Source: an uncultured bacterium
GTDB lineage: Bacteria; Vulcanimicrobiota; JAJTBE01; CAYNGH01
Direction: 5' to 3'
Length of the DNA: 52,815 nucleotides
Assembly: GCA_964396845.1 (NCBI GenBank)
Contig: CAYNGH010000005.1
Span: 1-52,815 of the forward strand
In this document: positions 33,165 through 36,206 of the stretch, in pieces
How the letters are laid out: every line of letters starts with the position of its first letter
How positions within the stretch are numbered: position 1 is the stretch's first letter
Notes under the pieces: model-generated
What the model saw: only the letters and a program-made list of their open reading frames with translations
Databases searched by the model: none
What the model was told of the DNA's origin: nothing
Translations under genes and position numbers: made by a program

Positions 33165-33746
33165 CTACCAGCGGATGATATGGAAATGGTCAAACCATAT
33201 GGTGTTTTCCCTCTGGGGAGTCAAATCCACAAAGGCAACCCACTTGTGAAAATCGTTGGGGGGGATTTTCCCTTTGATGTTCATATGCATCTTGATGTCG
33301 TCAAAGCTGATCCTGTGCTGTTCCCATTCGGTCCCTACTCGAAAGGTCTTGTACATAAGCTCATCATTGGATTCTCGTTTTATCTGGATAGCATAGGTGG
33401 TAGGTTTCTCTGCTTTCATATAAAACGAAACCGTTGACAAGCTTTCCATCACGATGTTATCACAATAAAAGCCGGGTTTTCCCTTGGATGGCTCAGGGTA
33501 TGAATACTTCAGAGAACCCCATCCCACCGCCTTTTCTTCGTAATCGATCTCCATAGTCCCGTTGCCCTCGATTAACGGCTGCCAGCCGATATGGGCAAGG
33601 TCAAACTTGACGGTCTGTTCCATTGCACTGATGCTGATGGGGAAAGCCCCTCCCATAAGGGCGATTATCAGGGCGATTGTCCCGATAATTACCAGGAAAA
33701 TAAATATTGAATTCACTATTGATCTGAATTTTTCCACAAATCCCAC
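33165..33746 (-). CDS. Membrane-anchored carbohydrate-binding-like (CBM11/CIA30-like) protein
   Basis: N-terminal TM, then a beta-sandwich pattern SFYMK..., W..HRISF.D, TIWFDHF. Confidence 0.55.
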   Translation of the reverse strand: MGFVEKFRSIVNSIFIFLVIIGTIALIIALMGGAFPISISAMEQTVKFDLAHIGWQPLIEGNGTMEIDYEEKAVGWGSLKYSYPEPSKGKPGFYCDNIVMESLSTVSFYMKAEKPTTYAIQIKRESNDELMYKTFRVGTEWEQHRISFDDIKMHMNIKGKIPPNDFHKWVAFVDLTPQRENTIWFDHFHIIRW

Positions 33747-33880
33747 CTCTTGTCCTGATAGATTTTATCCTTATGTATAATTATGATATGATGCAGGAAA
33801 ATCCTTCTGACTCCGCCGATGAAGGGTTTTAAGCGACATTCAAAGAACACATCTTAACAGCTGTAAGGCAGGAGGACCAA

Positions 33881-35413
33881 TTGAACAAAAACTTTTTCGC
33901 CACCACGCCGATTTATTACCCCGACGGTTTACCCGGCATCCAGACTGCATATTCCGCTGTCCTTGCCGACTGCATGTCCAGATATCACCGTCTTCTCAGG
34001 GAAAATGTCCTGATGCTCACCGGAACCGATGAACATGGAGTCAACATCCAGAAAGCCGCAGAAGCCCACCACAGGATCCCCCAGGATTTTGTTGACCAGA
34101 CATCAGAAAACTTCCGCCTGACATTTCGAAAGCTCCGTATCCGGGAAGACAGCTTTGTCCGCACCAGCAGTGAAGAACATATCCGGGTGGTGGAAGATGT
34201 CTTCCGGACCCTGGAAAAGTCAGATCATCTCTACAAGGGCCAATACAAGGGAAACTACTGTATAAGCTGTGAGAGCTTCTGGCCTGACAGCCTGATTTCC
34301 CGGGGACGTTGTCCCAAGCCCCGATGCATGGGACAGGTGGAAAAAGTCCGGGAAGAAGGTTATTTTTTCCGACTGTCAGACTTCACAGATCCCCTGCGGG
34401 AACAAATCCGGAACAATCCCGAATTTGTCTGGCCGGATCGCCACAGAAACACACTCCTGGAAACCATAGGCGATGGGATAAAGGATCTTTGTATAACCCG
34501 GCGAGGGCTGATATGGGGAATCCCTGTTCCCGACGACCCGGAATTCACCATATATGTATGGTTTGATGCCCTGCTGGGATACCTAACTGGCGCCGGATAC
34601 GGCAACGATGATTTTACACATCTCTGGCCCCCGACAGTTCAGGTAATCCGGGAAGACATCCTGACATTCCACGGAATAATCTGGCCCGCCATCTGCATGG
34701 CTCTGAGAATTCCCACACCCCGGAAACTTCTGGTCCATGGAAACATCCTGATTAACGGCAAATACTGTCCCTCCCACCAGCGAGGCCCGCTAAACCTGTC
34801 GGAGATACTGGACATATACGGTGCTGATGCCCTGCGGTATTTTTTCCTTCGCCAGAGTCCCACCGGCAACGATCTGGATGTCAATCTCCCATCCCTGGAA
34901 AAAAGGCTCAAACGGGATCTGGCCAATGACCTGGGGAACCTCTTCCAGAGATCCATCAGTATGATAGAAAAGTATTACAATTGCCATGTGCCGGACCCTT
35001 CCCGGCATTCTGCCCCCGAGAGAAACCTTGAACGAATTTTTCGCCAGGTAAAAAACGAATATAAGAAATCCATGGATTCCATGAAAATCCGGGAAGCCCT
35101 CATCAGCCTCTGGGACCTGGTGGACGGCCTGAACCGCTACATTCAGAACAACCAGCCCTGGAAAGAAGAAAATCCAAGCCGTCTGGCTACTGTCATATAC
35201 AATGTTGCCGACTACTTGAGGATCATATCCCTGATGCTCCGGCCCACATTGCCGGGAACCGCAAAAAAAATGTGGCGGGCCCTGGGTTTTTCATCGGACA
35301 TGGATACCCTCTGGTTTGACTCGGTAAGCCCCGGGCGATTCCCCAAGGGTCAGAAGGTTCACCCCATAAAACCTCTTTTTCCGAAAGTTGAAATCAGCGA
35401 GAATCATGATTGA
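33881..35413 (+). CDS. Methionyl-tRNA synthetase homolog with degenerate HIGH and KMSKS motifs
   Basis: TTPIYY, TGTDEHG, Zn knuckle (CISC/CPKPRC), YVWFDAL, DALRYF, LANDLGNL.R and NRYI..QPW are present. HIGH reads GIQT and the KMSKS region reads GKYCPSH. Confidence 0.9.
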   Translation: MNKNFFATTPIYYPDGLPGIQTAYSAVLADCMSRYHRLLRENVLMLTGTDEHGVNIQKAAEAHHRIPQDFVDQTSENFRLTFRKLRIREDSFVRTSSEEHIRVVEDVFRTLEKSDHLYKGQYKGNYCISCESFWPDSLISRGRCPKPRCMGQVEKVREEGYFFRLSDFTDPLREQIRNNPEFVWPDRHRNTLLETIGDGIKDLCITRRGLIWGIPVPDDPEFTIYVWFDALLGYLTGAGYGNDDFTHLWPPTVQVIREDILTFHGIIWPAICMALRIPTPRKLLVHGNILINGKYCPSHQRGPLNLSEILDIYGADALRYFFLRQSPTGNDLDVNLPSLEKRLKRDLANDLGNLFQRSISMIEKYYNCHVPDPSRHSAPERNLERIFRQVKNEYKKSMDSMKIREALISLWDLVDGLNRYIQNNQPWKEENPSRLATVIYNVADYLRIISLMLRPTLPGTAKKMWRALGFSSDMDTLWFDSVSPGRFPKGQKVHPIKPLFPKVEISENHD

Positions 35414-36206
35414 ATATATTGACACCCATGCCCATCTGGACCCTAAAAGCTGTCCCGATGCCGGAGCTGCCATCGAGGAAGCCCGCCGGGCAGGGGTTCG
35501 ATGGATCGTGGTGCCGGGGATTGATCCGGAAACCTCACGACAGGGAGCACAACTGGCAGAAAAGCATCCCGGGGTCTGTTTTGCACCGGGAATCCATTGC
35601 CACGAGGCATCCCGTTTCTCAGAAGATGACCTCCCTGAGATAAGCTCACTTCTTTGCCATCCCAAGGCCGTTGCCCTGGGGGAAGTGGGCCTTGACTATC
35701 ACTATGATTTCACTCCGCCACCGGTGCAGAGGGAACTCCTCAATGCCCAGATGGATCTTGCCAGAAAAACAGGCAAGCCATTGATTCTTCATTGCCGGAA
35801 GGCAGAAGAGGATCTCTGGCGAATGATTAAATCATACCAGGGGAAACTCCGGGGAGTGGTTCATTGTTACACTGGAACCCCTTACTGGGCAACAAAGTTC
35901 GTGGAGGAAGGATTCCACATCGGCTTTACCGGGATTATCACCTTCAGGAAAGCTGGAGAAATCCGGGAAGCACTGAAGGCAGTGCCCCAGGATCGCATTC
36001 TCACGGAAACCGACTCGCCCTATATGACGCCGGTCCCCCACCGGGGAAAGAAAAACAGCCCGGCTCTGCTTCCTCTGATAGCGGAAGAAGCCGCACGGAT
36101 CAAGAGAAGCACCATCCAAAAGATGGCACCGGTTTTTTTAAGGAATGCTTCTGAATGTTTCAATCTTGATTTGAAAGAAGATATTTTGAAGAATACCGAC
36201 AGTTGA
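35406..36206 (+). CDS. tatD: TatD family deoxyribonuclease
   Basis: IDTHAH, GEVGLDY, LHCR, HCY and ETDSPY. Overlaps the metG-like stop. Confidence 0.93.
   Translation: MIEYIDTHAHLDPKSCPDAGAAIEEARRAGVRWIVVPGIDPETSRQGAQLAEKHPGVCFAPGIHCHEASRFSEDDLPEISSLLCHPKAVALGEVGLDYHYDFTPPPVQRELLNAQMDLARKTGKPLILHCRKAEEDLWRMIKSYQGKLRGVVHCYTGTPYWATKFVEEGFHIGFTGIITFRKAGEIREALKAVPQDRILTETDSPYMTPVPHRGKKNSPALLPLIAEEAARIKRSTIQKMAPVFLRNASECFNLDLKEDILKNTDS

Follow-up and report, generated by a model that had tools for sequence, protein, structure and literature searches.

What becomes of a methionyl-tRNA synthetase (MetRS) whose gene stays intact while the residues that handle ATP are replaced? This question is raised by an open reading frame (ORF) at 33881..35413 (+) of the 52,815 nt stretch of DNA analysed here (the window; contig CAYNGH010000005.1 of GenBank assembly GCA_964396845.1), which comes from an uncultured bacterium of the Vulcanimicrobiota. 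The ORF is uninterrupted, starts with TTG and encodes 510 amino acids, with the stop codon included in the coordinates. An initial annotation had described its product as an intact MetRS homologue lacking the HIGH, KMSKS and GKDI signatures and had proposed that it is a repurposed protein. Our analysis places the gene in a clade of MetRS-derived genes that is held by purifying selection, in a genome that carries another MetRS. We consider it probable that the product is a non-aminoacylating pseudo-synthetase that binds methionine and tRNAs with a CAU anticodon (tRNA(CAU)).

An intact MetRS homologue with an altered ATP site

The window protein is related to bacterial MetRS of the MetRS2 type along its entire length. 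Pfam identifies only MetRS domains, and no cupin domain, across residues 4-505, comprising tRNA-synt_1g (PF09334, E 4e-84) and both MetRS anticodon-domain families. The protein scores 393 bits against TIGR00398, above the 336-bit cut-off. Its score against the MetRS2-type equivalog NF008900 is 522 bits, which is below the cut-off of 598 bits. An AlphaFold model built from a 145-sequence alignment has a pLDDT of 94.7 and a pTM of 0.93 and was used in place of a model from an 11-sequence alignment, for which pLDDT was only 65.8. The top Foldseek matches of the model are all MetRS (TM 0.87-0.92). The gene and its functional residues are arranged as follows.

33881..35413 (+), coding sequence of the 510-aa MetRS2-derived pseudo-synthetase, from the ORF, Pfam/NCBIfam matches, HMMER alignment, AlphaFold and Foldseek
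33870..33875 (+), Shine-Dalgarno sequence AGGAGG, 5 nt 5′ of the TTG start
33935..33946 (+), GIQT replacing HIGH, residues 19-22; His19 and Gly21 are invariant in 27/27 active relatives
34259..34327 (+), zinc knuckle of the CP domain, Cys127/130/144/149; all four Cys are clade-invariant, and members share a 2-residue insert (CPxPxC)
34556..34582 (+), VWFDALLGY, the kept wall of the methionine pocket (W227, A230, L231, Y234) with Asn changed to Gly233; contacts from Table 3 of PMC6038951
34649..34660 (+), REDI replacing GKDI, residues 257-260; ribose-binding Asp259 kept, Gly changed to Arg and Lys to Glu
34742..34744 (+), Asn288, where active MetRS has an adenine-stacking aromatic residue (HGW/HGF; PMC6038951)
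34763..34777 (+), YCPSH replacing KMSKS, residues 295-299 (KYCPSH at 34760-34777); both Lys are invariant in 27/27 active relatives
34922..34951 (+), ANDLGNLFQR, with anticodon-recognition residues Asn353 and Arg357 kept; roles from Table 4 of PMC10535265
35012..35077 (+), helix 378-399 (APERNLERIFRQVKNEYKKSMD), a near-invariant, clade-specific basic surface of the anticodon-binding domain
35159..35161 (+), Trp427, the anticodon-stacking tryptophan, kept

The positions that the initial annotation gave for the substituted motifs translate exactly to GIQT, REDI and KYCPSH, and HMMER alignment with the MetRS of Aquifex aeolicus (2csx; phmmer E 6e-98) sets these opposite HLGH, GKDI and KKMSKT. The translation also contains every motif that had been listed as retained: TTPIYY, TDEHG, VWFDALLGY, CISC...CPKPRC with the four zinc-binding Cys residues, and ANDLGNLFQR and LNRYIQNNQPW in the anticodon domain. 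Likewise, the good ribosome binding site and the metG-tatD position that had been noted are both present, the first as AGGAGG and the second with tatD directly downstream and overlapping.

The changes in the ATP site are H19G, G21Q, K55N, G257R, K258E, the replacement of the aromatic residue at 288 by Asn, K295Y and K298S. The AMP site of Mycobacterium tuberculosis MetRS is described in PMC6038951 as comprising His18, Gly20, His21, Glu24, Gly261, Asp263, Ile264, His290-Leu293 and the KMSKS loop, and the same paper reports that ATP-PPi exchange is mostly lost in F292A and entirely lost in K54A. At the equivalents of His18, Gly20, His21, Glu24, Gly261 and Phe292 the window protein has Gly, Gln, Thr, Ser, Arg and Asn, and the Lys54 equivalent is Asn. 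From these substitutions we infer that the window protein no longer aminoacylates tRNA and cannot activate methionine.

Most of the methionine contacts listed for the M. tuberculosis enzyme (PMC6038951) are kept, namely I11, Y13, D50, W227, A230, L231, Y234 and I260. The equivalent of Asn234 is Gly233; this Asn, within WFDALxNY, is invariant in 27/27 active relatives. The anticodon residues N353, R357 and W427 align by HMMER with those of A. aeolicus MetRS, whose roles, and those of their counterparts in Escherichia coli MetRS, are given in Table 4 of PMC10535265. Recognition of both methionine and tRNA(CAU) had been taken as retained. For the anticodon this agrees with the residues that we find. 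For methionine it may be so, as most of the pocket residues are in place, with the change at Gly233 as a caveat.

A second MetRS as the plausible housekeeping enzyme

The source genome (G000) is 97.9% complete, and its 308 contigs add up to 3.69 Mb. When searched with the window protein, it yields this protein itself, one more MetRS frame on contig C49, and LeuRS. A scan of the whole genome with PF09334 found no third MetRS, leaving only two MetRS-family genes. Because the C49 gene is present, the window gene is not the sole metG, the situation in which the initial annotation would have read it as a divergent active enzyme.

The C49 gene (L002:1039-2721) encodes a 560-aa protein of the archaeal MetRS1 type with HLGH and GKDN motifs, and its score of 635.8 bits exceeds the 587-bit cut-off of the equivalog NF001100. 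At the KMSKS position it reads RQFSTSRNWAVW, with QFSTS in which the second Lys is replaced by Thr. The segment FSTSRNWAVW matches the MetRS of Pyrococcus abyssi (1rqg, the best solved relative, E 1e-159), which reads KKFSTSRNWAIW there. Furthermore, [FL]STS occurs in 26 of the 30 MetRS1 loci fetched from the phylum, and FSKS in the other four. The loop is therefore a natural variant and not a defect. Among the 26 [FL]STS loci are those of G006, G014, G020, G025 and G033, genomes where the search with the window protein found the MetRS1 type only. Since the C49 protein passes the equivalog cut-off, carries a loop that is normal for its type, and belongs to a type that is the sole MetRS of related genomes, it is a plausible housekeeping MetRS.

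Contamination of the assembly as the source of the second MetRS is unlikely; two related genomes, G002 and G003, also carry both genes, and the GC content of C49 is 49.3% against 50.2% for the genome. Thus a clade member and MetRS1 occur together in 3/3 genome-resolved cases (G000, G002 and G003). The source genome has the usual number of tRNA(CAU) genes, with three (on contigs C6, C67 and C93) among 43 tRNAs. A gene for fmt was found in G000, G002 and G003 and in G007, a genome with an active MetRS2, so there is no hint of missing initiator formylation.

Two observations concern these genomes more generally. The 43 tRNAs of G000 include a tRNA-SeC(TCA), which probably reflects selenocysteine use. 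In G001, a genome of the same class that is 94% complete and has no pseudo-MetRS, the MetRS1 gene (G001:C4:14902-16571, locus L060) lies in two frames, covering residues 2-318 and 312-558, with one TAA; the cause may be a frameshift introduced by the assembly or a gene that is truly broken.

Extent of the pseudo-MetRS clade

The proteins closest to the window protein in a collection of 5.8 billion sequences are P0002-P0004, which are 56, 54 and 52% identical to it and carry PG[IL]Q[TA], [IV]R[EQ]DI and a loop without KMSKS. Somewhat more distant are P0005-P0008 and P0010 (47-51% identical), with PHL[AS]A, G[RK]DM and [KR][KR][IV][ST]R[SA]. In a tree of 40 rows, 13 rows form one clade with an SH-aLRT support of 100 and a stem of 0.43, and the two motif patterns mark its two subclades. 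The G003 orthologue falls in the second of these, subclade ii. The nearest rows outside the clade are the sole MetRS2 proteins of other families of the same phylum, and these have PHIGT, GKDI and KISKS.

Loss of the signature residues recurs throughout the clade. The second Lys of KMSKS (K298) is absent in 12/12 aligned members, G21 is kept in one of 11 and replaced in the other ten, and the first His is lost in six of 11. The orthologues with consistent motif loss that the initial annotation had called for are thus found, as a supported clade with intact reading frames. Active MetRS2 proteins (27 sequences) conserve 119 alignment columns at 90% or more; the clade (12 rows) keeps 76 of these columns at that level and 17 of them in fewer than half of its rows. 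These 17 include H19 and G21 (HIGH), K258 (GKD), K295 and K298 (KMSKS), N233, H286 and E191.

The clade is small: the window protein joins ten 90%-identity clusters, from which 21 member sequences were read. In a library of 1.84 billion representatives, only P0008 (951 bits) and P0020 (678 bits) rise above the plateau of canonical MetRS (at most 578 bits). When 401 genomes of the phylum (11 of them unpublished, all non-members) were scored with a clade profile, only G003, G002 and G000 reached 862-947 bits, followed by G007 at 655 bits. The class consists of four species genomes, three of which have a clade member. Among the best 80 loci of a genome-contig scan, the only clade member with DNA is L064, which is the G003 contig; no clade member is among the best 80 loci of a metagenome-contig scan, where the top identity is 39%.

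All named related proteins are labelled 'methionine--tRNA ligase' or 'methionyl-tRNA synthetase', and the pseudo-MetRS relatives serve as a warning about such annotations. The taxonomy of the lineage is also unsettled. NCBI gives different phylum labels to contigs G002:C34 (Firmicutes/Bacillota) and G003:C58 (Eremiobacteraeota/Vulcanimicrobiota), and the genome collection puts both genomes in one family.

The search of the 1.84-billion-representative library also revealed P0235 (506 aa), a MetRS2-like protein that stands apart and is degenerate to a greater extent, with PRFEK in place of PHIGH, TNEHG in place of TDEHG and INKDV in place of GKDI; it has no KMSKS, a broken zinc knuckle and no anticodon Trp. 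P0235 is 40% identical to the canonical protein P0022 and 30% identical to the window protein, which suggests an independent second origin of a pseudo-MetRS.

Purifying selection and a shift of constraint

The gene copies in G000, G002 and G003 are all full length without stop codons, and the full-length clade proteins are also intact. Synonymous divergence between these three copies is saturated, with identities of 0.26-0.40 at 4-fold sites and an NG86 dS that is undefined for all three pairs. Their dN values (0.29-0.49) are similar to those of tatD (0.32-0.51) and about 1.6-fold those of MetRS1 (0.19-0.30).

A more recent view of selection comes from the 90% cluster of P0005, which has five sequences that are 88-93% identical to P0005. 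When conserved columns were set by ten other clade members, polymorphism in this cluster fell in 6/179 conserved columns compared with 101/329 variable columns (Fisher p = 2e-15). The cluster mates of P0002, at 99.6-99.8% identity, are too close for the same test. Purifying selection acts on the clade, and at least in subclade ii it has been at work recently and not only in the distant past, because the polymorphism of the P0005 cluster avoids conserved columns. Neutral decay of the orthologues, which the initial annotation had named as an outcome that would speak against repurposing, is not what we observe.

The distribution of this constraint differs from that in active enzymes. Overall identity within the clade is 0.56, the same as in the sister active group (0.56) and close to that in other active MetRS (0.52). 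For the anticodon domain, identity is 0.60 in the clade versus 0.45 in each of the two active groups, and for helix 378-399 the mean is 0.72 versus 0.18 (sister active) and 0.20 (other active). The reverse holds for the second Rossmann half (0.56 versus 0.67 and 0.58) and the KMSKS domain (0.52 versus 0.63 and 0.57). Relative to active MetRS, constraint has shifted away from the catalytic core and towards the anticodon-binding domain, most of all helix 378-399. The clade-specific residues R381, N382, R385, K391, K395 and C272 each occur in 11-12 of 12 clade members. A helical wheel of residues 378-399 gives a buried face of L383, F387, V390 and Y394 and an exposed basic stripe of R381, R385, K391, K395 and K396.

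Three Cys residues are also conserved in the clade: C31 (33971-33973), C204 (34490-34492) and C272 (34694-34696). C272 replaces a Leu that is invariant in 27/27 active MetRS2, and C31 (10/11 members) replaces the usual Val or Ile. Their places in the sequence would put C31 and C272 on two Rossmann helices, probably about three turns beneath the active site, where a packing swap, a disulfide bond or metal binding might explain them.

Origin of the gene at the metG-tatD locus

The gene that follows the pseudo-MetRS is placed as it would be for an ordinary metG.

35406..36206 (+), tatD (TatD_DNase, E 7.5e-76); its ATG at 35406 overlaps the pseudo-MetRS stop by 8 nt (ATGATTGA)

The tatD gene is also directly downstream in G002, and in G003 it lies across a divergent gene of 196 aa. 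In G007, the active and sole MetRS2 gene is likewise followed by tatD, so the metG-tatD synteny is ancestral. This argues that the window gene is a vertical descendant of the original MetRS2-type metG of the lineage, with MetRS1 at another locus.

Comparison with known systems

Several paralogues of aminoacyl-tRNA synthetases (aaRS) are translation enzymes that have been recycled into regulators, among them the catalytically silent HisZ and SLIMP and LeuRS-I, which does not charge tRNA. The window protein would also fit among such paralogues. It shares with bacterial MetRS2 (NF008900/PRK12267; 2csx, Brucella 4dlp and M. tuberculosis 5xet) end-to-end homology, the fold, the zinc knuckle, most of the methionine pocket, the anticodon Asn, Arg and Trp residues and the metG-tatD locus. 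In contrast, it falls below the equivalog cut-off, has HIGH, GKD and KMSKS replaced and the aromatic residue lost, is not the sole MetRS of its genome, and carries the new basic helix. When membership among functional MetRS was tested by equivalog score, HIGH, KMSKS and sole-copy status, the protein failed on all four features.

By analogy, it would work most like the non-catalytic or non-charging paralogues HisZ, LeuRS-I and LeuRS2. HisZ is a HisRS paralogue and a regulatory subunit of ATP phosphoribosyltransferase. As described in PMC9437257, it coexists with an active synthetase, lacks adenylation, is kept by selection and reuses its amino-acid site for sensing. HisZ differs in being class II, whereas the window protein is class I, in having a known partner (HisG) and pathway, and in having no functional role in anticodon binding; in the window protein, no other part is as constrained as the anticodon domain. 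Closer in class are LeuRS-I of Sulfolobaceae and LeuRS2 of Halobacteria, full-length class I duplicates that bind tRNA with little or no aminoacylation; LeuRS-I is important for growth by a mechanism that these sources give as unknown (PMC9437257, PMC4005665). Unlike the window protein, whose ATP site is lost, LeuRS-I still forms the adenylate and its ATP site is intact.

Other relatives use aminoacyl-tRNA directly. The cyclodipeptide synthases (CDPS) and SbzA are class I Rossmann relatives of which the former perform no amino-acid activation and the latter transfers Ile from Ile-tRNA (PMC9437257, PMC6331615). The CDPS AlbC has no C-terminal tRNA-binding domain (PMC9437257), and identity with CDPS was rejected for the window protein, which is full length with an anticodon domain. 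SbzA differs in keeping HIGH and KMSKS and in lying within a biosynthetic cluster (PMC6331615), neither of which applies to the window gene. The MetRS-derived paralogues that we found in print are hydrazine synthetases, for example of the thrazarine and triacsin pathways, which join a cupin to a MetRS-like part and are encoded in natural-product clusters (PMC12376268, PMC8664883). Such an identity was also rejected, as there is neither a cupin domain nor a cluster context.

A review of aaRS duplication (PMC9437257) lists no MetRS, and the terms 'MetRS' and 'Met' occur in it zero times. In a full-text search of the main text of freely accessible papers, only the cupin-fused hydrazine synthetases were found and no description of a MetRS paralogue of the present kind.

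Possible functions of the pseudo-MetRS

The proposal that the gene encodes a repurposed protein without ATP chemistry is supported, as far as computation can show, by the second MetRS, the clade and the signs of selection. The particular roles that the initial annotation had offered for it (a sensor of Met or tRNA, a tRNA chaperone, a decoy or a partner subunit of an active MetRS) are candidates. We favour a history in which the original metG at the metG-tatD locus would have lost its housekeeping job to an archaeal-type MetRS1 encoded elsewhere. The old copy would then have given up the residues needed to bind ATP/AMP and to catalyse methionine activation, while keeping its fold, most of the methionine pocket, the zinc knuckle and the residues that read CAU. 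Thereafter, selection would have acted mostly on the anticodon-binding domain and its new, exposed basic helix 378-399. The resulting protein would bind tRNAs with a CAU anticodon non-catalytically, or at least independently of ATP, perhaps with methionine, or the methionyl end of Met-tRNA, as a further ligand, and the basic surface of the helix would provide an additional contact with RNA or with a partner.

If so, the family would be a natural experiment in which a foreign-type MetRS replaces the resident enzyme and the old protein loses its ATP chemistry, keeps its amino-acid and anticodon sites and gains a surface. It would also offer a directly testable case of the conversion of a synthetase into a binding protein. 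A more specific role that we put forward only tentatively is that of an ATP-independent reader of CAU tRNAs, which through the old readers and the new basic helix would capture initiator or elongator (Met-)tRNA-Met or unmodified tRNA-Ile2(CAU) and then shield it (for example from anticodon nucleases or mischarging), deliver it, or use its methionyl group. If this were true, the protein would represent a new class of tRNA-handling factor born of synthetase replacement.

Several points weigh against the reading as a non-aminoacylating binding protein. The loss of activity is read from motifs, and the correspondence with M. tuberculosis numbering was drawn by conserved motifs instead of a printed alignment. 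With Gly233 the methionine pocket is altered, so the bound ligand may be something other than methionine. One half of the clade (subclade ii, with PHL[ASG]A, G[RK]DM, K[KR][IV][ST]R[SA] and QGW) is only partly degenerate; this subclade could keep weak activation, in which case the family function could involve ATP and the window protein could be an outlier. Indeed, the window protein is the most divergent full-length member, with an end branch of 0.6 (that of the truncated P0020 is longer, at 0.81), and K55N, W125N and the loss of the aromatic residue at 288 are private to it, such that it could be further along a path of decay than its relatives. The genome G001 has no copy, and the gene is either dispensable or unassembled there. 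Finally, saturation of dS precluded a formal dN/dS, hence the indirect tests, and the co-occurrence with MetRS1 covers three genomes, the remaining clade members being on loose contigs.

Could the gene instead be a functionless relic of the replaced metG that decays slowly? The absence of the gene from G001 and the long end branch and extra private losses of the window copy would fit such a fate. Yet all three genome copies and the full-length clade proteins still have intact frames although synonymous divergence is saturated, most columns conserved in active MetRS are kept (76/119), substitutions of recent date tend to spare conserved columns (p = 2e-15), helix 378-399 has become near-invariant where active MetRS is hypervariable, and the ribosome binding site and the coupling to tatD are intact. 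The relic is thus already largely refuted and we regard it as very improbable. At the other extreme, the protein might be a working MetRS with an unconventional active site that serves as a backup or under particular conditions, such as stress or exposure to a MetRS1 inhibitor. Duplicated aaRS with auxiliary aminoacylation roles are common (PMC9437257), the fourth HIGH position varies (T, N, S or F) in apparently active MetRS2, and in subclade ii the first His, the Asp of GxD and the aromatic residue are still present. The window protein nonetheless lacks the functions equivalent to both HIGH histidines, both Lys residues of KMSKS, the adenine-stacking aromatic residue and K55, and the single changes F292A and K54A of the M. 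tuberculosis enzyme (PMC6038951) already cost most or all of its ATP-PPi exchange. Moreover, positions 19, 21, 258, 295 and 298 are free to vary in the clade and hence are not selected for a shared chemistry. The second lysine of KMSKS is also said to have been found crucial in E. coli MetRS, in work by Mechulam et al. from 1991. We therefore hold a working enzyme to be improbable.

Two further alternatives accept the loss of activation. An ATP-independent enzyme could act on pre-charged Met-tRNA(Met), either as a transferase resembling CDPS or SbzA or as a deacylase or proofreader in trans, with the kept methionine pocket, zinc knuckle and anticodon domain holding the substrate. The parts that are kept (amino-acid pocket, CP/zinc guide for the acceptor end and anticodon readers) are those that such an enzyme would need, the parts that are lost serve only activation, and the CDPS and SbzA precedents (PMC9437257, PMC6331615) and the new Cys residues at 272 and 31 also speak for it. 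But SbzA itself keeps HIGH and KMSKS (PMC6331615), the two Cys residues are probably some three turns away from the active site, and the strongest new constraint is in the anticodon domain and not in the active site. Also, the neighbouring genes (tatD, an aminotransferase, a glycogen debranching enzyme and small unknown proteins) provide no biosynthetic-cluster context, and an acceptor substrate cannot be proposed. Such an enzyme seems to us unlikely. Still more doubtful is a HisZ-like regulatory subunit or sensor that would bind methionine or uncharged tRNA-Met and control a partner through the new surface, with TatD as the nearest candidate. HisZ, a HisRS paralogue without adenylation that mediates allosteric control by histidine (PMC9437257), is a precedent; a conserved new surface exists; and tatD overlaps stop-to-start in G000, is adjacent in G002 and is nearby in G003. 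However, the metG-tatD adjacency is ancestral, being found with the active MetRS2 of G007 too, so synteny is uninformative about a new partnership, and the new surface is basic and would suit RNA at least as well as a protein.

Other features of the window

An Rfam search of the window gave zero matches at the gathering score, and no T-box or riboswitch was detected. Promoter-like sites (three, compared with 4.0 expected) and terminator-like sites (five, compared with 5.0 expected) are not informative. Upstream of the pseudo-MetRS lies a divergent gene.

33165..33746 (-), 193-aa membrane-anchored protein with an N-terminal anchor, divergent, belonging to no Pfam family

No homologue of this protein is adjacent to the pseudo-MetRS in G002, and in G003 a homologue that is 41% identical (E 1e-52) occupies the same position (L144:10003-10593).

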